The notes beneath the pieces were generated by a model. That model worked only from the letters and a program-made list of their open reading frames with translations. It was not told where the DNA came from and did not search any database. From a virus, in IMG/VR virus record IMGVR_UViG_3300045988_020338, positions 1-42,491 of that record: 42,491 nt of DNA, one strand, 5' to 3'. Of the stretch, positions 3,211-35,625 are shown piece after piece. Position numbers and translations under genes: made by a program. How positions within the stretch are numbered: the stretch's first letter is position 1; the number at the start of each line of letters is the position of its first letter.

Positions 3211-4278
3211 TCACTGCAAAAGGAAGAACAGTTGACCGTACTGTGGGTTGCTTGGGAGCTTTGAGCCGTACATCTTCGAACCTACCAGCAGCGGCCCGCC
3301 GCCGAGGGATACAACATCGCTTAGCGTAATAAATGCGCCTTCATAGGCAGAAAGATAAATCTTGCCTCCGGAATTGAGCTGAATGCCGCCATACGTCGTG
3401 TTGATGGCAATACCATAGCCGGTCGTCGTGTAGGCCAGCTCGATAGAGCCGATGGATTGGTTGCTGCTTGCCAACAATTCGACTGTGCGACCCCTGAGCT
3501 TTTCCGCTGTGATGCTCGTCTCGTCGATGTACGTTGCGATAGCGCTGTCGACCTCGCTTGCACTCAATCCCGCGTTGTTGTCGACATAGGTCTTCGTTGC
3601 GTAGTTCGAGCCGTCCTTGAGATCGCCGACGCGGATGCTGCCGGTTTGGATTTTGTCGGCCGTCAGCGTACCCGTGATATTCGCCGCATCGACGTACAGA
3701 TTGTCCGTCTTGATGCTGCTGCCGTTGATTTTGGTCGTGCCGCTCGCGTCCGTCACCGTCAGGCCGTCCAGCGTGGTCTTGACCTCGGTGTACTTGCCGT
3801 CGATGCCCTCGACCTTGAGCATGATTTCCTCGCTGGTCTTGGTGATGAGGGAGCGAGTTTGAGAAATCTTTCGGTCAAATTCCTGTTTGATATAACCGCC
3901 GGATGGGTATTCGTCATCCATCTCCAACTCGCCAGGGGAGGCAATATCTGCGTATCCTCGCCCATCATCAGAAAGTTTAGACAGCGGCGAATAAATGCCA
4001 CCAACCGTCACGCCGTCGCCCAGCTCTGCCGCTGGATCGATGTTTGCTGCGCCTGCTTCGTACGCCTGATACTGGTAGCCTTTCATGGTTTGCAGTAAAG
4101 CATTTACCATTGGCTGCGTGGCGTGAGGGCAACTTGCAATGACCTCCATTCCGGTATCGTCGCCCGCCGTCAGGCTATTTTCGTCGTCCACAAGCAACGT
4201 CACACGGGAAATAGGCTTATACTTGCCATTGTCGGAAAAGCTTGTAATGTCGCCGCCGACGTAATATTTATCAGACAA
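3211..4278 (-). CDS. Tail-tip / fibre-anchoring structural protein
   Basis: 355-aa ORF, third gene downstream of the tape measure gene. The C-terminal half has repetitive beta-type segments (TDASGTTKINGSSIKTDNLYVDAANITGTLTADKIQTGSIRVGDL). Confidence 0.6.
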   Translation of the reverse strand: MSDKYYVGGDITSFSDNGKYKPISRVTLLVDDENSLTAGDDTGMEVIASCPHATQPMVNALLQTMKGYQYQAYEAGAANIDPAAELGDGVTVGGIYSPLSKLSDDGRGYADIASPGELEMDDEYPSGGYIKQEFDRKISQTRSLITKTSEEIMLKVEGIDGKYTEVKTTLDGLTVTDASGTTKINGSSIKTDNLYVDAANITGTLTADKIQTGSIRVGDLKDGSNYATKTYVDNNAGLSASEVDSAIATYIDETSITAEKLRGRTVELLASSNQSIGSIELAYTTTGYGIAINTTYGGIQLNSGGKIYLSAYEGAFITLSDVVSLGGGPLLVGSKMYGSKLPSNPQYGQLFFLLQ

Positions 4279-16844: not shown

Positions 16845-18079
16845 GCGATAACTCCCATTCTGCGGCTAATTGGCTCAACTGCATAGCGCAGTGCGTCTAT
16901 CAAATGGTTCTTCTCGTCTGGGTAGCCGCTGATAAAGTTTCCGTCTTTGTCACGGTCGTATTCGTAGTTTACAAACTCGTCATAGGCGTGCGGCGTGCGT
17001 CTACGGTCAATAACAATCTTCCGGCGTTGCAGCCACTTCATGCCGTAAGCCACGCTGTCTGGTCCCTTTACGGCAGCTTTGGCAGGCAATCCCATAGCCC
17101 GGAAGTCGGCTACGCTTTTAGGCTCTGCGCTGTCGCAGATGATATAGGCGCTGGCGTATCCTTTTGCCTTAATCATGCCCGCGCTCTGCTCGTTGGAAAG
17201 TTTGTTTTGATATATCTCATCTATCAGGTAAATTGTCTCCCGCGCCTTGTCGTAGTGCACGCGGATAAATGCAAACGGGTCAGGGAACCACCCATAGTCC
17301 ACGCCCTGATAAATCCTATCAAAGTGGCTGATTTCCTCGTCTGTAATCTCCCTCAGTTCCAAATTGTCAAACACGTTCCCGCCGGTGCCGACCGGGATAC
17401 CGAGATATTCGTGCTGATACGCGCGCTCGTCTGTCTCTTTGAGGTGTTCCGCTTCTTCAAGAAACTGTTCGCCCAACCATTCAGGCGGTGCTTGCAGGTA
17501 CGTTGACTTGTGGCACAGCCGGTCAGCCCGTTCCTCCAAACTGTCCTTGTTTGCCCAGTTGTCCCGGCTGATCGGCGGGTTATAGCTTTCAAAATTCCAG
17601 AAAACCGAACCGCCGCGCATGGTCGACTGCAAAATGTTTCGTATCTCCGCGCGTCCGGCAAACTGATCTTTCTCTTCAAAGTGCGTCACGGCGATATAAC
17701 CAAACGGCACCTTGATAGACTTGATCTTCATGGGGTCATCCGCGCCGCGGAACATGATCTTCTGCCCGGTAGGCTTGTAGATCAGCTCCATCGGGGAAAC
17801 CTTGGCTTCCCAGTACGCCGCCATTCCCAGCTCACCGATTGCCCAGATATACTGTGCATAGACGCTATCGCGGATCGTGGTTGCCACCTTGCGCAGCACA
17901 AGCGCGTGTGTTCCCGGATTGGCAACCAGTAAAAGCGGAACAATAATTGATACCGTGGAGGACTTCAGTGAGCCGCGCCCACCGCTGAAATCGTAGTGCG
18001 TGTGACCGTGGCAGAACACGTCATGCGCCACGCCGTAGAACGCCGGTCCGATTTTCTCTGACAGAAGAATATCAGACAT
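16841..18079 (-). CDS. terL: Terminase large subunit (PBSX-type)
   Basis: 412 aa. Walker-A-like GGRGSLKSS near the N-terminus, nuclease-half acidic motifs, and an 8-nt overlap with terS. Confidence 0.9.
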   Translation of the reverse strand: MSDILLSEKIGPAFYGVAHDVFCHGHTHYDFSGGRGSLKSSTVSIIVPLLLVANPGTHALVLRKVATTIRDSVYAQYIWAIGELGMAAYWEAKVSPMELIYKPTGQKIMFRGADDPMKIKSIKVPFGYIAVTHFEEKDQFAGRAEIRNILQSTMRGGSVFWNFESYNPPISRDNWANKDSLEERADRLCHKSTYLQAPPEWLGEQFLEEAEHLKETDERAYQHEYLGIPVGTGGNVFDNLELREITDEEISHFDRIYQGVDYGWFPDPFAFIRVHYDKARETIYLIDEIYQNKLSNEQSAGMIKAKGYASAYIICDSAEPKSVADFRAMGLPAKAAVKGPDSVAYGMKWLQRRKIVIDRRRTPHAYDEFVNYEYDRDKDGNFISGYPDEKNHLIDALRYAVEPISRRMGVIA

Positions 18080-18443
18080 CGATAATCACCTTAACGACGG
18101 AATCAGCGGTAGAATTGTCTTGCTTGTCAAACACTCCTGTATGTTTTGCAAGCATTTCGAGTGCCTTTAGCTTGTTCGCATATTTCAGGTCGCTTTCTGT
18201 GCAATCAGACGCAGGTTTGTCTGCTATTTCTTTGAGCTTTTCGATCACATAATCCTGTGTTACTTCCGTCCGTTTCTGTCTTTCCGCCTTTGCTTTTTGG
18301 ATAGCGGCCGAAACGTTACTATTCGTAACTAACTGCCTACCTTTCTCGGCGTTCTTATACCCTGCTCTCGCGGCGGCTTGAGTGGCATTTAAATCCACAA
18401 GATACTCTTGAACAAATCGCTCTTGTTTTGCTGTTAATGGCAC
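18072..18443 (-). CDS. terS: Terminase small subunit (Terminase_2-like)
   Basis: 123 aa. GTG start with GAGGTG upstream. PLTAKQERFVQEYLVDLNATQAAARAGYKNAEKGRQLVTNSNVSAAI is the classic small-terminase HTH. Confidence 0.85.
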   Translation of the reverse strand: MPLTAKQERFVQEYLVDLNATQAAARAGYKNAEKGRQLVTNSNVSAAIQKAKAERQKRTEVTQDYVIEKLKEIADKPASDCTESDLKYANKLKALEMLAKHTGVFDKQDNSTADSVVKVIIDV

Positions 18444-19086
18444 TCGTCACCACCTCTCTTGTCACAATTTTGCTACCAGCCCCCACCCCTTGGCCTTACA
18501 TAGCAGACTTTACCCGCCCCGAAGGGCTTCAACGCCGCACTCAAAGCAGCGGCTCTCCTCTTTTGGTACGGCATTGCAGTCCTGTCCTGCTTTAGCGATT
18601 CGGGAAAGTCCCCGTCACTCGCTGTGGTCTCCCCTTACGGGACACCTATGCCGCATATGTCCGCAACGAGCCGGTCGGCGCTTCGGCATCTCCAACAGCA
18701 TGAGCATTTGCATCCTCACGTCCGGGCGGCAGCTGCCTGTTCTGCCCTTCGTTGCGGTGCTGCCGTCTAAAACTGCTATCACCATGCGCAATCACGGTGA
18801 CGTGCTGGAACTCCGGTAGCATAGTAGTTTGTAAGCATGTCCCCGCTGGGCCACATCGTTGAGAGGTGCGCGGGGTCCTGTGCCGCATGAAAGGTGCGAC
18901 CTCTCGGCCCTGATCGTGGGCTGCATCGTGCGTGCGGCATGTTGCGGGGGGCGGTGTGAAAAGATGAAAAGCACCGCGCCCCGCTATGCCGCAGGAGGTG
19001 GACGCCATAAATGAGAGAACCGCAAAGGCTTTTACACCTCTGCGATTCTATTATCTCATAAGCAAATGGCTTTTTAAGGCCAACTT
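18444..19086 (-). ncRNA. Candidate large structured non-coding RNA (class unknown)
   Basis: 643 nt between the late activator and terS, with no RBS-led ORF. Helices found by eye:
- 18661-18669/18749-18757: 9 bp, perfect.
- 18934-18940/18986-18992 plus 18944-18956/18972-18984: 7+13 bp with one mismatch.
- 18861-18867/18899-18905, nested in 18848-18852/18906-18910.
A C(UUCG)G tetraloop (18516-18527) and a GUAA loop (18632-18641) exist only in the minus sense. Confidence 0.45.
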
Positions 19087-19398
19087 TTAATCATCAAGCA
19101 GCCCATAGTTTCGTGCTACGCACTTGATGAAATCGGTATGCCATCGTCTCGCCGTCCGGTCGGAACAGTTGACTGCCATCGCTGCCCCTTCAAGCGTGTG
19201 GGTCTTGTCCCAGAACACAAGGCGGATAAATTTCAAGCGCTCTTCGCCGTCTTGCATTGACTTTGTTTCGCTCACCGCTTTTCGCACAGCGTTGTTTTCT
19301 AACAAAGGGACGCCATGCAACTCCTGCTCTCGGTCGGGGGCATAGCGGCGAATAATGGCTTTTACATAGCCCCACCAGCTGTAACGAGGTTTACTCAT
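19087..19398 (-). CDS. RinA/ArpU-like late transcriptional activator
   Basis: 103 aa, last gene before the packaging module. The C-terminal HTH AAMAVNCSDRTARRWHTDFIKCVARNYG resembles the RinA-family C-terminus (region-4-like). Confidence 0.6.
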   Translation of the reverse strand: MSKPRYSWWGYVKAIIRRYAPDREQELHGVPLLENNAVRKAVSETKSMQDGEERLKFIRLVFWDKTHTLEGAAMAVNCSDRTARRWHTDFIKCVARNYGLLDD

Positions 19399-19870
19399 GG
19401 CGCACCAACTTTCTCTTCACCCACGCCCACAGGTTTCTCCACGGGTGGGATTCTGCGTAATCGGCGCGCCTACACTCAAAAGCGGCTCTATCCACCATTT
19501 TAGTTACGTAATTCCGCAGCGTGTTCTTTTCTGCGACAGAACGCGTCAACTCTGCATTTACCCGCCCAAGCGCCGCCTCGGTGTCAGCAAGCTTGTTTTT
19601 CAAGTCGGCAACTTCTCGCTTCGATGCCTGCCACGCTCTCCAATACTGTTGCCCCTGATCGTTCAAATGCTGAGCCGAGTTTTTGGCTGAATCAAAGTCC
19701 GCTTTCAGCTTCTCGATCTCGTTGGCATTGTTGATGGCTTCGCCGTTCATCTGGCTGATCCGCTCGGTCAGGGTGGCGTTTACCCGCTTTAATTCCTGCA
19801 CTTCCGCCTGTGCGTCCTCCACCATCTTCGCCATCTGGTCTTTGGTGTACTTTTTGATGTTAATGCTCAT
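19391..19870 (-). CDS. Coiled-coil hypothetical protein
   Basis: 159 aa, heptad-rich, with 4- and 8-nt overlaps to its neighbours. Confidence 0.6.
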   Translation of the reverse strand: MSINIKKYTKDQMAKMVEDAQAEVQELKRVNATLTERISQMNGEAINNANEIEKLKADFDSAKNSAQHLNDQGQQYWRAWQASKREVADLKNKLADTEAALGRVNAELTRSVAEKNTLRNYVTKMVDRAAFECRRADYAESHPWRNLWAWVKRKLVRHE

Positions 19871-20334
19871 TCTGCCACCGCTTCCCCGACGATCATCCAG
19901 TCATCAGCCAGCATGTCGGCCTGCGAGGCCAGCCAGCCGAGCTGCACGCCGGACGTGCCGACAAAGGCAAGCGCTTTGTTTCCGATGGCCTCGTGCTTGG
20001 CGTTAATTAACTCGTGCGCAGCGTTCTCGTAGCTGATACGCTCCGCAAGCTCGACGTACTGGTTCTTACCATTCCAGCCGCGGCGTGCGATCTTCATGCC
20101 CTTCTTCACTGCCTCGATAGCAAGTCCAAAGCTCAGCCCGTCAGTCGGTCGATACGCCTCTTCAAAAACCTGCTTCGGGCTGAAAGATTCGTATCCGTCA
20201 GAGTAGCGGACTTTGTAACCGTCTTCCTCGGGCTCCATGCTTCTCGGGATGGGCTGGGTCTTCTCGTAAACTTTGCCGCCCTTGCGGATAGCCGGTGCCG
20301 CCTCGATAAGTTTCGTTCCGATGTACTGTTTCAT
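19867..20334 (-). CDS. DUF2829-domain protein (Tad2-like candidate)
   Basis: 155 aa. C-terminal half: LSFGLAIEAVKKGMKIARRGWNGKNQYVEL...GWLASQADMLADDWMIV, which carries the DUF2829 hallmarks (GWNGK ... W.ASQ.D.LA.DW). Confidence 0.7.
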   Translation of the reverse strand: MKQYIGTKLIEAAPAIRKGGKVYEKTQPIPRSMEPEEDGYKVRYSDGYESFSPKQVFEEAYRPTDGLSFGLAIEAVKKGMKIARRGWNGKNQYVELAERISYENAAHELINAKHEAIGNKALAFVGTSGVQLGWLASQADMLADDWMIVGEAVAE

Positions 20335-20775: not shown

Positions 20776-21163
20776 CGCTGTCACCTCCGTCCATCTTGGC
20801 CCCGCAATCCTCGCAGTACTTTTTGGTAGGCTTGTCCCAACTGCCCTCGGTGGCAATGACAAAGCCGCACACAGGGCAACACCACTCATCCCCGCCAAGA
20901 TGCGCCCAGCGGGTGTGCACCACCGGCGCAACGTCGGCGGCGGGAGCATCTTCAATTTCAAACTCTTCTGAGAGCCACTTAAATACGTACTCAAGGCAAT
21001 ATGAACTGAACCCAACGTGATAATCTTGATCTACCGGGTCAAAATACAAAATGTTGAAATACGGCCTGTCAGGCGTCCCGGAAACAAAAATTTTTGCAAA
21101 GCTGGTCTTTATTTTGTCCTTGTGGGTGCAAACATCTGCACTCTGCATTTCTTTTTCACCCAT
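20762..21163 (-). CDS. Hypothetical protein with C-terminal zinc ribbon
   Basis: 133 aa, AGGAGGG upstream. CPVCG...CEDCG pair near the C-terminus. Confidence 0.6.
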   Translation of the reverse strand: MGEKEMQSADVCTHKDKIKTSFAKIFVSGTPDRPYFNILYFDPVDQDYHVGFSSYCLEYVFKWLSEEFEIEDAPAADVAPVVHTRWAHLGGDEWCCPVCGFVIATEGSWDKPTKKYCEDCGAKMDGGDSDAAD

Positions 21164-21368
21164 TGTCCGCCCTCCTGTTCCATGCTTTGATTGCTTCTTC
21201 TTTGCTCGGCAATCCAGATACCTTCATCTGCTTTGTGTGTATCCCGTCACCAGCTCTATATCTCCCGCAACCGGCACTCCATCCAAAATCGGCTCTATCG
21301 TAGGTATCGTACATATTGATGACGGTTGCAACTCCACCGCACTCAGGGCAAGGTTTCAATTCAGCCAT
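21156..21368 (-). CDS. Lar-family restriction alleviation-like protein
   Basis: Trimmed to ATG 21368 (ATGGCTGA overlap with the ASCH gene). MAELKPCPECGGVATV...SAGCGRY...EEAIKAWNRRA matches the Lar-type pattern (LKPCPFCGG ... eA...WNrR). Confidence 0.65.
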   Translation of the reverse strand: MAELKPCPECGGVATVINMYDTYDRADFGWSAGCGRYRAGDGIHTKQMKVSGLPSKEEAIKAWNRRADNG

Positions 21369-21897
21369 TGTCCATCGCCTCCACATAGCACCAGCTCTGG
21401 GGCGGGCGTTCAAGCGTCCTCCCACACTCGACAAGATTGATGCTCCCGTCAGGGTTGTAGTCATATTTTTGATATGAGCAAGCAACCCTGCGCGACGGGC
21501 ACGATTTATCATCATTTTTATACCTGCACACAGGAAAAAACTCGCCCAGATCTCGCGGCTTGTCGTAGATTTTCAGTTCGACGATATGCCAGCCATATCC
21601 GGTTCCCTTTAGGTAGTTCACAATTTCTTCCCGCGTCAGGCAGGCTTGCTTTTCTACGTCATCCGGTGCATGGTTGATAGGCGCAAGCTCATAAATCCGG
21701 TCACAGGTAAACTCGCCGATAACCTTGCCCCATGAGCCGCGCAGTCTGCGTGCGTCGTTGCCCTGTGAGCAATAGATATAGGCCTTAAACGGCGTTTCCA
21801 ACTTCGGCCGCGTCTTGCGCACCTCAATCGTTTTATCGCCATTGATGATCTTCTCGCACCACTTCGGGCGGACGCTCAGCATAACAGCCTTGCTCAT
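21361..21897 (-). CDS. ASCH-domain protein
   Basis: 178 aa. The N-terminus AVMLSVRPKWCEKIINGDKTIEVRKTRPK matches the ASCH/PUA-like beta-barrel signature. Confidence 0.7.
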   Translation of the reverse strand: MSKAVMLSVRPKWCEKIINGDKTIEVRKTRPKLETPFKAYIYCSQGNDARRLRGSWGKVIGEFTCDRIYELAPINHAPDDVEKQACLTREEIVNYLKGTGYGWHIVELKIYDKPRDLGEFFPVCRYKNDDKSCPSRRVACSYQKYDYNPDGSINLVECGRTLERPPQSWCYVEAMDNG

Positions 21898-29031: not shown

Positions 29032-29855
29032 CGCGTCACCTCTTCCATCGTGATTTGTGTGGGCTTTTCAAACAGCGGGGCAAGCATTTGTTCCTGCGCT
29101 GCCCTGTAGAAATTCTTGTCGATCTCAAATCCGTAAGCATTGCGGCCCAGCTCATACGCCGCGCGAAGTGTGGTCGCGCTTCCCGCACATGGGTCGATTA
29201 CAACATCGCTGGGGTCGGTAAAAACCTCAATCAATCGTTTCAACACGTTCACCGGCTTCTGCGTGGGGTGGATTTTTGGAATGTCCTTCCCGTCGCGCTC
29301 CCACTTCTGCCAGTCAAAAACCATCTTTCCCGTGCCACGAATTGGTTTCCCATCTTCGCCGATCTCGCGCCCGTTGTTGAATTTCGGCAGCTTGTCGCGG
29401 TAAAGAACCACCGCGAACTCCGTCGCGCTTACCACTCGCATGTTGGCTTTAAGCACCTGCGCGGAATAGTTTTTGCAGAAAAACATCGGGTAGCTGTTCT
29501 TAAATCCGTACCGCTTGCCGTACTCCACGACGGTCTGCATCTGGTCAAACGCGCAGAAAACAAGCATTGCCGGGGCTTGCCCTTTCTCTTTCGGCTCTTT
29601 CTTCAAAAGGCGGTTGCAGAAGTGCATATATTCTGCAATCTTGAAATAGCCATCGGAATTGAAGAAACTTCTCTTTGCCTTTTTGCTCTCGCCGTTTTTG
29701 TTGTCGCCGCCGATGTACCACGTCGGATTGCTTCCGTAAGCGTCAGCGCCGATGTTGTAGGGAATGTCCGCGATCACGAGCTGCGCCTTTGGGATTCCGT
29801 ATTTCTTAAAATTCTGGAAATTGTCATGGTACAGCTCGCATTTCATCGTCTGCAC
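29028..29855 (-). CDS. DNA methyltransferase (N6-adenine/N4-cytosine, beta class; no cognate nuclease seen)
   Basis: 275 aa. Motif IV LVIADIPYNIG is near the N-terminus and motif I VIDPCAGSATTLRAAYELGRNAYGFEID near the C-terminus. Confidence 0.85.
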   Translation of the reverse strand: MQTMKCELYHDNFQNFKKYGIPKAQLVIADIPYNIGADAYGSNPTWYIGGDNKNGESKKAKRSFFNSDGYFKIAEYMHFCNRLLKKEPKEKGQAPAMLVFCAFDQMQTVVEYGKRYGFKNSYPMFFCKNYSAQVLKANMRVVSATEFAVVLYRDKLPKFNNGREIGEDGKPIRGTGKMVFDWQKWERDGKDIPKIHPTQKPVNVLKRLIEVFTDPSDVVIDPCAGSATTLRAAYELGRNAYGFEIDKNFYRAAQEQMLAPLFEKPTQITMEEVTR

Positions 29856-30765: not shown

Positions 30766-31359
30766 TTACTCGATTTCCTCCCAGCGGAATCTGCCTTTCC
30801 CACTGTTTCGCCACTGGCCAATGCCGGAGAATCTACCGTAATCCAGCCAGTCGCGCACAACGTCGATGTGGTCGTCGCACAGGCAGACCACCGTAAATTC
30901 GCACGTTGCCCCGGCGGGGATTTCCTCGCTCATTGCAAGGCTGACGCGCTCGCCCTGCGCCGTTTGCGCTCTCAGCGGGCGCTGGCACTCCTTGATCTCG
31001 CCGTCAAAGAGAATTGGAATGGTGCGCGGCTCGGGGAAAATCAGCTTGTCGATTTCCTTCTTGTAAGCCTTGATTTTGCTGCTGGACGAATCCTTGACCT
31101 TGCGAAGCCCGCCGCAGGTGTCCTTGAAAAAGCCCTTGATCTGGTAGTCGTACAAAAACGGCGTGCCATCGTCCAAACGCGGAAAAATGGTCATGGACTT
31201 CTCGGCTACCGCGTCAGCGCCGAGCGCTGCCACCTCGTCCTCCACGCTCGCCGCATCCGGCGCGTGGCTGCCGATAAACTCGCGGTAGATATCAGGGTTT
31301 GCGGGGCTGGTACCGAGAATCGGCTCGATAAACGTTAATTTAACTTTAAGTTCTTTCAT
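30766..31359 (-). CDS. Hypothetical early protein with C-terminal glycine-rich loop
   Basis: 197 aa, second gene of the early operon. No family recognised. The C-terminus is GRFSGIGQWRNSGKGRFRWEEIE. Confidence 0.7.
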   Translation of the reverse strand: MKELKVKLTFIEPILGTSPANPDIYREFIGSHAPDAASVEDEVAALGADAVAEKSMTIFPRLDDGTPFLYDYQIKGFFKDTCGGLRKVKDSSSSKIKAYKKEIDKLIFPEPRTIPILFDGEIKECQRPLRAQTAQGERVSLAMSEEIPAGATCEFTVVCLCDDHIDVVRDWLDYGRFSGIGQWRNSGKGRFRWEEIE

Positions 31360-31839: not shown

Positions 31840-31886
31840 TTTACGCTTTGCACAATTTTTTCTTTCTCCTTTGTGAGGGTTTGTCA

Positions 31887-32699
31887 ATGGCGCTATTTGA
31901 TAAGCAAATAAAAAAATACGTCGAAGAAAACTTTTCTGAAAAAGAAAAAGCACTCGCAGAAACCGAGCGCTCTGTCCAGCGGCATTTTGCTAAAAGCCGC
32001 GAATATAGAATTATGCTGCAAGATTATCAGAAGGAATTGCGTGAGCGTGATAGAGCCATTTCTGAAAAAGAAGCCAAACTATCTAAACGCAAAGAGGATT
32101 TGGACGAATTCGAATCCACATTAAAGGCGCGAGTAAAAGAAGATGTTGTGCGAGAGGCCAAAGAAGAAAAAGCTACGTTAAAAGCGGATTCTATAAAGCT
32201 GCAAGAGGAAATAAAATCCTTATCGGCGAAAAAAGCCGGCCTTATGGCTGCGGAATACAAAATTATAGACTGGGTCTCTCGGATGGAGAAAAAAGAAAGC
32301 GAAGTATTCGACGAAATACTTGCCGACGCAAACAAATTCCAAAAGTTCAAACTGTCTATTGATGGGTATGAGTTTGAAAGCTACGTTGCCGATCTGCTTA
32401 TAAAAAACGGCTATGAGAAGGTCGAGGTAACAAAAAAGTCGCAGGATTTCGGAGCAGATATTCTTGCCGAGAAAACAGATGTGCGATATGCGTTTCAATG
32501 CAAATACTACTCAGGACAAGTTGGAATTGAAGCGGTGCAGCAAATTTACGCAGCAAAAGAGCATTACGATTCTCATGTTGCAGTTGTCGTTACAAACAGC
32601 GTGTATACAAAAGCCGCTAAGATTTTGGCAGAAGAATTAAACGTAGTCCTGTGGGACTGCGAAGACCTCACGGTTTTGTCACAAAACAAGGATATGTAA
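31887..32699 (+). CDS. Coiled-coil protein with C-terminal Mrr-cat-type (PD-(D/E)xK) restriction endonuclease domain
   Basis: Trimmed to ATG 31887 (GAGGG upstream). 270 aa. The N-terminal ~150 aa are a Lys/Glu heptad-rich coiled coil. The C-terminus is GYEFESYVADLLIKNGYEKVEVTKKSQDFGADILAEK...YAFQCKYYSGQVGIEAVQQIY...VAVVVTNSVYTKAAKILAEELNVVLWDCEDL. Confidence 0.75.
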   Translation: MALFDKQIKKYVEENFSEKEKALAETERSVQRHFAKSREYRIMLQDYQKELRERDRAISEKEAKLSKRKEDLDEFESTLKARVKEDVVREAKEEKATLKADSIKLQEEIKSLSAKKAGLMAAEYKIIDWVSRMEKKESEVFDEILADANKFQKFKLSIDGYEFESYVADLLIKNGYEKVEVTKKSQDFGADILAEKTDVRYAFQCKYYSGQVGIEAVQQIYAAKEHYDSHVAVVVTNSVYTKAAKILAEELNVVLWDCEDLTVLSQNKDM

Positions 32700-34306: not shown

Positions 34307-34326
34307 ATTGATTGGAGGGGGATTTG

Positions 34327-35625
34327 ATGAGAGCGGCACTATATATCCGCGTTTCCAGCGAGGAACAAGCGCGGCATGGTCTATCATTACAAGAGCAGCG
34401 GGATGCGCTGGCAAGATATGCCAAAGCGAATAAAATGACCGTGGTGGGCATATATGAGGACGCGGGCATATCCGCGCGAAAGCCGTACAAAAAGCGCCCC
34501 GCGCTCCTGCGGCTGCTGGACGATTGCAAGGCGGGAAAGGTGGACACGATCCTGTTTATTAAACTCGACCGATGGTTTCGAAATGTTGCTGGATATTACG
34601 ATGTGCAGACGCAGCTCGACCGGTACGGCGTAACGTGGCAAGCGACGGAAGAGGACTACGAGACGCGCACCGCATCAGGGCGATTGAAGGTCAATATCAT
34701 GTTATCCGTCGCGCAGGACGAAGCCGACCGCACGAGCGAGCGAATCAAATTTATCAACGATGGCAAAAGGGCAAAAGGGCAACCGGCAGGCTCAAAAGCG
34801 CCTTTAGGGTATATTATCAAGGACAGGCAATACCAAATTGATAACGACACAGCAGACGCGGCGCGAGATATGTTTGCCGCATATATCCGCCTGAAAAGCG
34901 TCCTTGCTGTAAAACGATATATGCTCGACACATGGGGAATTGACCGAGCATATAACAAGTATGTCAACTATTTCCACAACCGGCTTTACATTGGCGAGGT
35001 GTACGGCATCGAAAACGCTTGCCCCTCGTTGGTGAGCAAGCAAGACTTTGACCTTGTAACTGATGTTTCCCGCCAGCGGTCACAGCGCTGTGCCGGAGTT
35101 GATGTGGATCGCGTGTATCTGTTCTCGGGGCTTTTGCATTGCAAGGAATGCGGAAGGACAATGCAGTCGGAAACCGCAAAACAGATATATACATATTACC
35201 GTTGCCGGACGCGGATGCTTGACAACTCCGCTTGCCTGCACATGAAGAGGATCAGGGAAGACTTGCTGGAAGAATACCTATTGCACGAGCTTGTTGGGAT
35301 TGCGGAGCGGAACAATCGGTATTACAAAAAGGCCAAAAAAAAGCCCACGCAGAGCGCGGACGCGATACGAAAGAAAATAGGCAAGCTGAAAACGCTGTAT
35401 CTAAATGATTTGATCGAGCTGGACGATTACAAGGCAGAATACGCGAGCCTGAAAAAGTCCCTTGAGACCGTGGAAGAAAAGCCAAAGACAGACCTTGATG
35501 CCTTGAGAAACGGGCTGGGCGAATATGATACATACTCGAGGGAAGAAAAAAAGGAATTCTGGACGCGCTTCATCAGGAGGATTGATGCAGACAACGATGG
35601 CGCGTTTTTCGTAACGCCGCGTTAG
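34327..35625 (+). CDS. int: Large serine recombinase (integrase)
   Basis: Trimmed to ATG 34327 (GGAGGGGG upstream). MRAALYIRVSSEEQARHGLSLQEQRDAL...GISARKPYKKRPALLRLL...VDTILFIKLDRWFRN is the resolvase catalytic domain. It is followed by the recombinase domain and a Zn ribbon (CKECGRTM...YYRC). Confidence 0.9.
   Translation: MRAALYIRVSSEEQARHGLSLQEQRDALARYAKANKMTVVGIYEDAGISARKPYKKRPALLRLLDDCKAGKVDTILFIKLDRWFRNVAGYYDVQTQLDRYGVTWQATEEDYETRTASGRLKVNIMLSVAQDEADRTSERIKFINDGKRAKGQPAGSKAPLGYIIKDRQYQIDNDTADAARDMFAAYIRLKSVLAVKRYMLDTWGIDRAYNKYVNYFHNRLYIGEVYGIENACPSLVSKQDFDLVTDVSRQRSQRCAGVDVDRVYLFSGLLHCKECGRTMQSETAKQIYTYYRCRTRMLDNSACLHMKRIREDLLEEYLLHELVGIAERNNRYYKKAKKKPTQSADAIRKKIGKLKTLYLNDLIELDDYKAEYASLKKSLETVEEKPKTDLDALRNGLGEYDTYSREEKKEFWTRFIRRIDADNDGAFFVTPR

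Follow-up and report, generated by a model that had tools for sequence, protein, structure and literature searches.

Phage PhiTE encodes a pseudo-ToxI, an RNA by which a type III toxin is neutralised. For skipping-rope RNA, a structured motif that also figures in this study, we know of no function that has been assigned since 2017. It was described with a 3' Rho-independent terminator and an associated protein gene, and it occurs only rarely in 5' UTRs (Weinberg et al. 2017, PMC5737381); the same survey finds ROOL and GOLLD RNAs often near tRNAs in prophages. The abiF-motif RNA (RCd22) has been shown experimentally to be the trans-acting antitoxin of the AbiF/Abi_2 HEPN toxin (PMC12373285). 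This antitoxin RNA is summarised as AbiFr in PMC12737573, and its inhibitory nucleotides are placed by review in a single-stranded bulge. Phage sk1 likewise has an inhibitor of AbiF, an RNA hairpin in its cos region (PMC13064643), and phage tRNAs are documented as counter-defences in three further reports (PMC10264068, PMC11555353, PMC11464382). In this article, we describe an intergenic gap in a viral genome that, as we hold with moderate confidence, is a polycistronic small-RNA gene island whose products would be processed and whose cargo may act in trans in counter-defence.

The window analysed here is a stretch of 42,491 nt (IMG/VR virus record IMGVR_UViG_3300045988_020338), and all positions refer to it. 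The gap, 643 nt long (18444-19086), lies between the start of the small terminase gene terS and the stop of a regulator-like ORF. The downstream flank, terS, occupies 18072..18443 on the minus strand with a GTG start at 18443 (Pfam Terminase_2, E 2.4e-23; phrog_51), and the upstream flank is a 103-aa ORF on the same strand (19087-19398) that matches the transcriptional regulator phrog_36 at E 4e-7 and has no Pfam match. The G+C content is 0.585-0.625 within the gap compared to 0.43-0.55 in the flanks. Two ORFs of 109 and 120 aa (18490-18819 on the plus and 18646-19008 on the minus strand) overlap each other inside the gap; neither has a Pfam or PHROG match, and we conclude that they are not genes because their frames are broken by frameshifts in relatives that are about 90% identical in DNA. 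A first-pass annotation had named the upstream ORF, putatively, the late activator and had described the gap as ORF-free, GC-rich and highly self-complementary, and the tests of composition, folding and ORFs agree with this description of the gap. Its remark that all other gaps are shorter than 90 nt is not supported: in the ORF list, one minus-strand ORF ends at 29855 and the next starts at 30766, and the roughly 900 nt that separate them hold only short plus-strand ORFs. Genes near the gap match the Pfam Tad2-like (Thoeris anti-defense 2-like) and Lar (restriction alleviation) domains, and the window ORFs that were searched yielded neither an Abi_2 nor a DUF3800 gene.

Folding of the gap gives z = -6.3 for the minus strand and z = -3.2 for the plus strand (20 shuffles each), and the functional strand is the minus strand, that is, the strand of the genes. 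An Rfam match, the fold and covariation among homologues, none of which has an intact gene here, bear out the earlier proposal that the gap is non-coding structured RNA in the minus sense. The elements follow one another in the order promoter-like site with 5' hairpin, long hairpin, module A-II, module A-III, module B, skipping-rope RNA, module C and terS leader, all on the minus strand. The modules are real: C, A-II and A-III are supported by compensatory changes, and skipping-rope RNA by a curated family model, the only one in Rfam whose curated threshold is passed in the gap. The word TGCCGCA, which had been noticed at three places, proves in each case to be one strand of a closing stem.

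The array opens with a promoter-like site (TTAAAA-16-TG-n-GATAAT, 19050..19077) that has 9/12 matches and an extended -10 element. The scan recovered it where the TTAAAA/GATAAT pair had been pointed out previously (19077-19050), although a sole site in the 1.2 kb scanned is near the chance level of 0.7 expected. The -10 part is kept in relatives that have another upstream gene, because the module begins at q26-28, and the predicted promoter may be the start of the island transcript. Directly after the -10 box stands a 14-bp hairpin (19016..19049) followed by CUCAUUUAUG; it was returned by the scan for terminator-like sites and by the MFE fold, and may serve either to stabilise the 5' end or as an attenuator/terminator-like element. 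The next element is a long GC-rich hairpin of 7+13 bp (18933..18993), replaced by another long hairpin in the "type-2" relatives. This composite, first noted at 18934-18992, is present in the MFE fold. Its inner 13 bp stand alone, but one strand of the outer 7 bp (UGCGGCAU/AUGCCGCA) is also used by the closing stem of module A-II, which covaries, so that the two pairings compete.

Module A-II (18881..18939) is a 59-nt mini-cloverleaf of three hairpins with a 7-bp closing stem (UGCCGCA/UGCGGCA). In the alignment of 28 variants (A2), 96.4% of the cells are paired compared to 32-52% with slid partners, and four pairs are changed on both sides, all of them between two lineages: CG to UA and AU to GC in the closing stem, GC to CG in hairpin 2 and AU to GC in hairpin 3. 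Covariation in A-II is essentially a matter of two lineages.

Module A-III (18840..18875) is an abiF-motif-like hairpin. It aligns with the abiF family RF03085 over the full length at 17.0 bits, below the gathering score of 37, with E 1.2 in a search of 201 nt and E 5.7 in a search of 951 nt against all families. The loop core CCUCUCAACGAUG is identical to the abiF consensus (13/13), and 9/9 model pairs are standard. When a model was built from A-III itself, bona fide abiF RNAs were its best non-self matches. The outer stem has compensatory changes in 4/6 pairs and is 97.5% paired; none of 500 shuffles reached the covariation score, the percentage paired or the number of doubly changed cells, while 5 and 75 of the 500 attained the values of two further measures based on counts. 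In the relatives, A-III always stands a few bases 5' of a tRNA, a tRNA-like RNA, another stem-closed module, or B together with skipping-rope RNA; an upstream position relative to an abiF (Abi_2) gene is not seen, the window ORFs tested having no Abi_2 match. Bona fide abiF RNAs of cultured phages, which score 50-58 bits, lie within a tRNA array in S-SZBM1, close to tRNAs in Thibault and Acj61, and in the gap 5' of terS in CGphi29. The hosts of these phages are mycobacteria, cyanobacteria, Acinetobacter and Salicola, and in none of the flanks shown is an AbiF gene annotated. By eye, complementarity can be seen between the loop of A-III (CACCUCUC) and the Shine-Dalgarno sequence of terS (GAGAGGUG).

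Module B (18759..18820) is a stem-closed, Y-shaped element with a GCUACCG/CGGCAGC stem and an inner 9-bp hairpin, and in the relatives sampled it always occurs together with skipping-rope RNA. A comparison by eye of only nine distinct sequences indicates that both helices are kept in two sequence types via G-U intermediates and, at one pair, by the repair of A-C to G-C. Neither B nor A-II has an Rfam match at E <= 10 or belongs to a known family. Skipping-rope RNA itself (RF02924, 18662-18756) covers model positions 1-80 of 80 and scores 45.6 bits, above the gathering score of 36.7, with E 9e-8 in the search of the whole window; the copies in relatives score 45-51 bits, and P1 and the central hairpin exhibit compensatory differences between two sequence types. 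A perfect 9-bp helix reported at 18661-69/18749-57 is real and is the P1 closing stem of this match. The terminator scan found no terminator-like site near 18662, where 7 nt lead directly into module C, and among the neighbouring ORFs tested neither a DUF3800-related nor another defence-like domain was found. The phage phiCD6356 was considered as a further carrier of skipping-rope RNA; its genome NC_015262 has no Rfam match to it at the gathering score.

Module C (18564..18654) is a 91-nt tRNA-like cloverleaf of three hairpins. It has the outline of a tRNA, namely a 7-bp acceptor-like stem (GCGGCAU/AUGCCGU), a discriminator followed by CCA, and a four-way cloverleaf; the 3' tail is ACCA in the window copy and NCCA in 54/68 variants. 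From the alignment of 48 variants (A1, mean column identity 91%), RNAalifold predicts 26 pairs, nine of them with a compensatory change, and 7 covarying pairs are found in the acceptor-like stem; copies that are about 91% alike imply few independent events. The helices are 98.2% paired compared to 39-47% in slid controls, none of 500 shuffles matched them on any of five measures, and the presence of 121 G-U versus 7 A-C cells fixes the strand. The boundaries are sharp when relatives are aligned. Junctions and loops are invariant, but the loop of hairpin 2 varies freely (ACUUU, GAAUGAU, CGUU). Hairpin 1 carries the GNRA-type GUAA loop that had been spotted at 18632-41, on a stem with compensatory changes, and the loop of hairpin 3 is GGCAGGA. 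A 7-nt anticodon loop and the T-loop and D-loop signatures are absent from module C, and for lack of the latter two its recognition by tRNA enzymes is not assured. ARAGORN did not report it at the default, 80% or 60% thresholds, and no Rfam family, tRNA (RF00005) included, matched it at E <= 10, while our own model (R1) gives it 106 bits. A tRNA or tmRNA of canonical form was likewise rejected for the gap: the calls that ARAGORN made with relaxed thresholds were implausible and none lay over module C.

Module C is found in at least 119 IMG/VR stretches, 5' of several unrelated first genes. A scan of contigs used a 14-base pattern that is too short, so that nearly all of the 120 matches listed are chance; the only real copy among them is in one Oscillospiraceae MAG (L263). 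A search with our own model for diverged copies in phages with 68% identical terS gave only spurious matches overlapping the terS start. The array ends with the terS leader (18444..18563), which contains two small hairpins and the terS ribosome-binding site GAGAGGUGG; the UUCG hairpin noted in the first-pass annotation is one of the two. A sub-block of this leader (~18468-18527) reappears 5' of other first genes in relatives.

To place these modules in context, we compared 55 distinct upstream regions from phages with at least 93% identical terS. In these relatives the gap is a mosaic of stem-closed modules that are independently shuffled as cassettes with recognisable breakpoints, and tRNA genes occupy the homologous slot on the same strand, where they are swapped with the non-coding RNAs. 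Module C is present in 31 of the 55 regions, tRNAs in 26 and skipping-rope RNA in 8, the latter two being mutually exclusive. In one relative (L003) the slot is taken by a second, different cloverleaf ending in ACCA. CCA is encoded by most of the distinct array tRNAs (62/71). The ends of their leaders, AUAU, AUAC or AAAU, are like that of the module C leader. The modules and the tRNA genes of the relatives thus have a common punctuation, in which an AUAU-type leader is followed by a 7-bp stem and then NCCA. In other phages, the RNA modules are found next to tRNAs and 5' of unrelated genes.

The reading that we favour, a processed island of small-RNA genes, starts from the shared slot and punctuation, and by analogy the island is probably processed like tRNA precursors. 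A single precursor transcript would run over the island in the direction of the late genes, and host tRNA-processing enzymes would cut it into separate small RNAs; the promoter, transcript ends and cleavage sites are predictions. The cut of RNase P would fall 5' of each acceptor-like stem, and the same cleavage would free the abiF-like hairpin located just upstream. A plausible role of the released cargo is action in trans against those host defences that target RNA. The AbiF HEPN RNase is blocked by its RNA antitoxin, which the abiF-like hairpin could mimic. Against defences directed at tRNAs, the tRNA mimic without an anticodon could serve as a decoy or replacement, and so could the real tRNAs of the relatives. 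Skipping-rope RNA could be an orphaned version of an RNA whose usual partner is a protein encoded nearby. The cargo of the window lacks an anticodon arm and consequently cannot decode, so that it would need a role as mimic, decoy or processing signal.

Among the alternatives, which we take in order of decreasing probability, the one that survives best interprets the gap as a long cis-acting leader of the late/packaging operon, with hairpins that steer read-through (attenuation or antitermination) or the translation of terS. We consider it unlikely. The gap does lie directly 5' of terS on its strand, a terminator-like hairpin comes right after the promoter-like site, and the stem that closes A-II is an alternative pairing to the outer helix of the long hairpin. 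The complementarity of the A-III loop to the terS Shine-Dalgarno sequence could be counted in its favour as well, but CCUCUC is already part of the abiF consensus and therefore need not have evolved for this pairing. A leader specific to this operon also fits poorly with modules that stand 5' of unrelated genes and beside tRNAs in other phages, with the substitution of tRNA genes for modules, and with the rarity of skipping-rope RNA in 5' UTRs (PMC5737381).

A second alternative sees module C and its neighbours as functionless remains, either decayed tRNA genes or scars of recombination in tRNA arrays. Decay is difficult to reconcile with a mean column identity of 91% maintained over many genomic contexts with sharp ends, with the preservation of all five module C helices by compensatory changes at 98% pairing, and with invariant junctions and loops beside a freely varying hairpin 2 loop. 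This pattern of conservation, as far as can be judged from sequences, bears signs of selection on a new fold. We regard decay as improbable even though the modules stand in tRNA slots and share the acceptor-like stem sequence GCGGCAU and CCA tails, and many array tRNAs are odd themselves (unusual anticodon loops, inserts).

The first-pass annotation suggested one large ornate RNA of the ROOL or GOLLD type. A single structured RNA of such a class that spans the gap as one working unit would be consistent with the unusually stable whole-gap fold (z = -6.3), with the retention of the entire module order in eight distinct relatives, and with the phage and tRNA context common to ROOL and GOLLD (PMC5737381). 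The analogy of context holds, as relatives have tRNA genes in the slot, but the identity does not: models of ROOL, GOLLD, raiA, HEARO and group I/II introns had no match at the gathering score in the window or at E <= 10 in 18300-19250, and the gap divides into about seven separable modules that also stand alone or recombined, with breakpoints at stem boundaries. The long-range nested helices proposed earlier (18848-52/18906-10 and 18861-67/18899-905) find no support in the comparative data either: they compete with covarying local hairpins, and one partner column varies uncompensated. We find a single large RNA very unlikely. An intron remnant was rejected, as the group I/II models gave no match even at E <= 10.

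Packaging sites are often located at or 5' of terS, for instance in pac phages such as SPP1, and the gap is rich in inverted repeats that might only resemble RNA helices. A DNA-level element, i.e., a pac/cos packaging site or an origin, is nevertheless highly improbable: the module C helices accept G-U but not A-C (121 versus 7 cells), a strand-specific pattern typical of RNA, the modules shift among phages with different terS families, and one of them is a curated RNA family. A decayed protein-coding gene, which the two ORFs of 109 and 120 aa might suggest, can practically be dismissed given that these ORFs match no family, overlap each other on opposite strands and are disrupted in close relatives, and that no relative has an intact gene at the homologous place.

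If the gap is a processed small-RNA island, a wider reading can be put forward, which we offer tentatively and with considerable doubt: an RNA-only counter-defence island that combines orphan partner RNAs of host defence nucleases with CCA-tailed, anticodon-less tRNA mimics. The orphan partners would be the AbiF-antitoxin-like hairpin and skipping-rope RNA here, and abiF and DUF3800-type motifs in other phages. The tRNA-like units might play two roles, as RNase P/Z "punctuation" through which the small RNAs beside them come free of a common precursor, and as decoys for defences that hit tRNA bodies or acceptor ends. If true, phage tRNA islands in general would be anti-defence RNA islands, which would account for part of their purpose, and a function open to testing would emerge for the orphan skipping-rope motif; its occurrence as an exchangeable cassette in a tRNA slot, beside a relative of a proven RNA antitoxin and a CCA-tailed tRNA mimic, makes this hypothesis concrete. 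The certified phage abiF RNAs without annotated AbiF suggest a general and largely unremarked disarming of type III toxin systems. Three modules (C, A-II and B) are candidate new RNA classes, common in human-gut phages and open to modelling and searching.

Compared with known systems, the gap resembles ROOL and GOLLD in its phage or prophage context near tRNAs and in having no assigned function. In contrast to these single RNAs of ~500-800 nt, it is an array of 36-95-nt units that match them neither in sequence nor in structure. The likeness to phage tRNA arrays extends to slot, strand, punctuation and the acceptor-like stem with NCCA as found in the tRNA genes of sister phages; with counter-defence tRNA arrays it also shares a neighbourhood, in the genes matching Tad2-like and Lar domains. 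It differs from them in that the window cargo lacks the anticodon arm and the T-loop and D-loop signatures. The skipping-rope copy has the 8-bp P1, the variable middle hairpin and the pair of similar 5-bp hairpins, each with a 9-nt loop, of RF02924. Unlike the RNA as described, it lacks a 3' terminator; the neighbours tested include no DUF3800-related gene, and the copy is embedded in an RNA array in which tRNAs replace it in relatives. By our own reading of the structure line, the skipping-rope consensus bears a resemblance to class I tRNA in its equal junction spacing (2/1/4/0 nt).

Module A-III shares with the abiF motif RNA (RF03085) a 6-bp outer stem, a 1-nt bulge, a 3-bp inner stem and an 11-nt loop. 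It departs from the consensus in its inner stem (CAC/GUG instead of AGC/GCU) and its 3' internal loop (GCCCA instead of CAAAUC), and it is a single copy rather than a tandem pair, with no abiF gene among the window ORFs tested. The likeness to PhiTE pseudo-ToxI and to the sk1 hairpin is one of concept, a phage RNA against a type III toxin, A-III being known from its sequence. Whereas the sk1 hairpin is described as not resembling the AbiF non-coding RNA (PMC13064643), A-III does resemble it. The sk1 cos-region element likewise adjoins packaging genes, and A-III is placed as the certified abiF copies of phages are, by tRNAs or upstream of terS.

The gap upstream of terS (18444-19086) consists of a row of RNA cassettes on the gene (minus) strand, each closed by a stem and folding separately; they include a certified skipping-rope RNA, an abiF-like hairpin and a CCA-tailed tRNA mimic and are exchangeable with tRNA genes. 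It is bordered by terS (18072-18443, minus strand, GTG start; Pfam Terminase_2, E 2.4e-23) and by the stop of a 103-aa ORF (19087-19398, minus strand) that weakly matches a PHROG family of transcriptional regulators. G+C content is 0.585-0.625 in the gap versus 0.43-0.55 in the flanks, neither ORF within 18444-19086 has a Pfam or PHROG match, and both frames are disrupted by indels in relatives with ~90% identical DNA. The minus-strand gap RNA folds at -274.7 kcal/mol (z = -6.3, 20 shuffles) and the plus-strand RNA reaches only z = -3.2 (20 shuffles). These composition, coding and folding results indicate that the gap, its G+C-rich composition, the absence of genes and the self-complementarity described in the first-pass annotation are all real. 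ARAGORN found no tRNA in the whole window.

We retrieved 80 related IMG/VR loci using terS as a handle. Wherever a fetched locus shares the upstream ORF, the gap is long without exception (486-1095 nt) and its content is a patchwork, with recombination breakpoints grouped at q26-28, 147, 203-208, 250, 330, 425 and 524, where q is the RNA-sense coordinate, 19087 minus the window position. Many relatives carry same-strand tRNA genes in the gap (Gln, Trp, Thr, Ile, Met, Ser, Ala and others, by Rfam and ARAGORN). Among 55 distinct upstream regions from phages with terS at least 93% identical, 26 contain at least one ARAGORN tRNA, 31 contain module C and 8 contain skipping-rope, which in this sample is always accompanied by module B; none of the 55 combines tRNAs with skipping-rope. 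The pair formed by B and skipping-rope occupies the exact position of the tRNAs in sister phages, between A-III and module C or the leader. CCA is encoded in 62 of the 71 distinct array tRNA genes, whose leaders finish in AUAU, AUAC or AAAU, the same punctuation as that of module C.

Odd tRNAs are frequent in the arrays of several related loci (L002, L024, L055 and others; for example L055 at -1017 to -925 relative to terS). The oddities are a ~20-nt insert within the anticodon region (in tRNAs of ~93 nt), A34 anticodons (AAU, AUC, AGA), and "anticodons" of 2 or 4 bases, for which ARAGORN gives tRNA-???. Such tRNAs may serve as decoys or to evade defences. Two loci from a phage group with 68% identical terS carry a different ncRNA cargo in the equivalent region, namely an int-alpA RNA (RF02996, 51.8 bits) ~1 kb upstream of terS (L070, 1994-2063; L073, 1876-1945, the latter also with a tRNA).

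The sole Rfam match at curated thresholds in the whole window is the skipping-rope RNA (RF02924) at 18662-18756, minus strand, which covers the full model with 45.6 bits (gathering score 36.7). Its closing stem, P1, is the perfect 9-bp helix 18661-18669/18749-18757 already recognized by eye in the first-pass annotation. The adjoining module B (18759-18820, minus strand) is closed by GCUACCG/CGGCAGC around an inner 9-bp hairpin. In a nine-sequence alignment of both cassettes, read by eye, P1 and the middle hairpin of skipping-rope show compensatory differences, and both helices of B are kept across two sequence types via wobble intermediates.

Module A-II (18881-18939, minus strand) is a 59-nt mini-cloverleaf in which a 7-bp closing stem, UGCCGCA/UGCGGCA, encloses three hairpins. 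A second sequence type in relatives alters four pairs on both sides with pairing kept (two of the closing stem, one of hairpin 2 and one of hairpin 3), and 96.4% of cells are paired versus 32-52% in slid controls; these compensatory changes divide just two lineages and thus represent few independent events. The outer 7 bp of the composite hairpin at 18933-18993 take as their 3' strand the 5' strand of the closing stem, so the two are alternative pairings: the composite hairpin of the first-pass annotation competes with A-II for one strand, and the recurring word TGCCGCA consists of closing-stem strands.

Module C (18564-18654, minus strand) is a tRNA-like cloverleaf with an ACCA tail, found in at least 119 IMG/VR stretches by an exact-pattern scan. 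Its ends are very sharp across contexts (5' GCGGCAU after an ...AUAU leader, 3' AUGCCGU-ACCA), and at least eight unrelated sequences adjoin the 3' end. An NCCA tail is present in 54 of 68 distinct variants (ACCA 48, GCCA 3, UCCA 3), the others ending in ACAA, CCAA and similar. For 48 variants RNAalifold predicts 26 pairs arranged as a four-way junction, and 9 of these pairs show compensatory change. The closing stem has 7 bp, with a first pair of G-C in 18, G-U in 15 and A-U in 12 variants; one hairpin ends in a loop of GNRA type (GUAA, GCAA and others), the long hairpin has conserved internal loops and a freely replaceable tip, and the third has 4 bp and the loop GGCAGGA. A GGCAG-type motif is common to hairpin 3 and the skipping-rope hairpin loops. 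Of all cells, 98.2% are paired (39-47% in slid-partner controls), and none of 500 shuffles reaches any of five measures. R1, a model built from the module C alignment, finds one copy in the window (106 bits), and an Oscillospiraceae MAG holds one real copy, in which an acceptor-stem change is compensated. A canonical tRNA is rejected, since module C has no Rfam tRNA match at E <= 10 and no ARAGORN call even at 60% thresholds, and its "anticodon" loop is constant in neither length nor sequence. Four related loci (L003 at -236 to -85 relative to terS; also L004, L006 and L014) hold a second, different tRNA-like cassette that is likewise non-canonical: there the abiF-like hairpin is followed by an ~85-nt RNA with closing stem GCGGCGU/...CGCCGU, three hairpins and an ACCA tail.

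Module A-III (18840-18875, minus strand) coincides with the other notable Rfam match at E <= 10, a sub-threshold one to abiF RNA (RF03085). In every relative a tRNA, module C, the L003-type module or B follows a few bases 3' of it. Four pairs of its 6-bp stem have compensatory changes (one position is CG, GC and UA), 97.5% of cells are paired, none of 500 shuffles attains the covariation score, and the 23-nt interior is nearly invariant. Aligned to the abiF model, A-III fills all 37 positions with nine of nine pairs standard, and its core CCUCUCAACGAUG is identical to the consensus. The score, 17 bits against a gathering score of 37 (E 1.2-5.7), is marginal by statistics alone and is low because the inner stem and 3' internal loop differ. 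The abiF reading is backed by the coincidence of the match with a module delimited by recombination breakpoints, by the identity of the matched stems with the covarying ones, and by R2, a model built from the A-III alignment alone, which in a search over 96 kb ranked certified abiF RNAs best among non-self matches (Thibault, 17 bits, E 0.013; loop only in S-SZBM1 and CGphi29). On these grounds A-III is taken as a divergent relative of the abiF motif, short of certified membership. The A-III loop CACCUCUC (18860-18867, minus strand) is the exact complement of the Shine-Dalgarno region of terS, GAGAGGUG (18451-18458, minus strand), ~400 nt downstream; this may be coincidence, CCUCUC being part of the abiF consensus.

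The abortive-infection toxin AbiF (Abi_2, a HEPN RNase) has the abiF-motif RNA as its antitoxin. The C. difficile ncRNA RCd22, with two abiF motifs, binds AbiF directly and neutralizes it in cis and in trans (PMC12373285), and in a cryo-EM structure summarized by a review the nuclease is blocked by the ncRNA (PMC12737573). Pfam and PADLOC detected no Abi_2 gene in the tested ORFs of the window. Against cultured phages the Rfam abiF consensus gave BLAST matches in 75 records, and the four examined hold Rfam-certified abiF RNAs (50-58 bits) with no annotated AbiF gene nearby. Their contexts mirror that of the window: the RNA lies within a tRNA array, 5 nt 5' of tRNA-Ala, in Synechococcus phage S-SZBM1, 270 nt 5' of tRNA-Gly in Mycobacterium phage Thibault, near a tRNA cluster in Acinetobacter phage Acj61, and in an 800-nt gap directly upstream of terS in Salicola phage CGphi29. 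A cyanophage abiF RNA was noted earlier without a functional reading (PMC9964418). Thibault (L323) also has, directly 5' of tRNA-Tyr (3381-3462), a sub-threshold match to DUF3800-IV RNA (42.9 bits, gathering score 60.7, E 2.4e-4), a candidate for another protein-partner RNA motif in a phage tRNA region.

Among other explanations, a purely cis-acting terS leader may account for the last 120 nt and the 5' hairpins, and leaves unexplained the cassettes found before unrelated genes and beside tRNAs. Module C lies upstream of several different terS families and of ParB-like, Tad2-like and HU-like genes; it is cargo and belongs to no single gene's leader. A leader sub-block (~18468-18527, minus strand, …GCCCUUCGGGGCGGGUAAAGUCUGCUAUGUAAGGCCAAGGGGUGGGGGCUGGUAGCA…) is found again in relatives immediately before various first genes, among them ParB-like genes and members of several terS families, with an identical translated peptide prefix; it could be a shared late promoter/operator or leader. 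Decay from tRNAs is contradicted by the conservation and compensatory changes of the cassettes. Against a DNA packaging site stands the asymmetry of G-U and A-C cells: module C has 121 G-U versus 7 A-C cells, so its helices exist on the minus strand only, which means RNA and not DNA. The single large ROOL/GOLLD-type RNA proposed in the first-pass annotation is contradicted by the mosaic gap of relatives and by Rfam, which returned nothing resembling ROOL, GOLLD, raiA, HEARO or introns at E <= 10 (18300-19250). A decayed protein gene is contradicted by the broken frames.

We hold the cassette anatomy of the island with high confidence; its function is proposed tentatively, at somewhat less than even odds. 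The array would be transcribed as one precursor, starting at the promoter-like site 19077-19050 or by read-through; host tRNA-maturation enzymes would cut at the acceptor-like stems, also freeing adjoining hairpins; and the products might work in trans against host defences that target RNA, with the abiF-like hairpin as a putative antitoxin mimic and the tRNA mimic and real tRNAs as possible decoys or replacements. Phage tRNAs are reported as counter-defences (PMC10264068, PMC11555353, PMC11464382), and a cos-region RNA hairpin of lactococcal phage sk1, reported as an AbiF inhibitor (PMC13064643), is a precedent for counter-defence by a packaging-region hairpin. A short way upstream, past the regulator-like ORF and a coiled-coil ORF, lie two genes with Pfam matches to Tad2-like (Thoeris anti-defense 2-like; E 6.6e-20) and Lar (restriction alleviation; E 1.6e-7) domains (19867-20334 and 21156-21515, minus strand), which place the island close to genes with anti-defence-type domains. 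Elsewhere an Mrr_cat nuclease and a large serine recombinase lie near each other (31848-32699 and 34312-35625, plus strand); the nuclease, which in PADLOC also matches models for ZorD, PDC-S02 and type IV restriction, is possibly a defence gene that a prophage carries in its lysogeny region. The island, which belongs with the known phage tRNA/ncRNA islands, carries a testable and potentially general counter-defence hypothesis.

With respect to known systems, modules C, A-II and B, unmatched in Rfam 15, are candidate new RNA classes common in human-gut phages; we found no description of them in literature searches that were not aimed at these three. Two cassettes relate to known families: the abiF-like hairpin as a variant, and the skipping-rope copy as a member in a new setting, without terminator or partner gene and in a tRNA slot. 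In the Rfam consensus the linkers between P1 and the three skipping-rope hairpins are 2, 1, 4 and 0 nt, the acceptor/D/anticodon/variable/T spacing of a class I tRNA.
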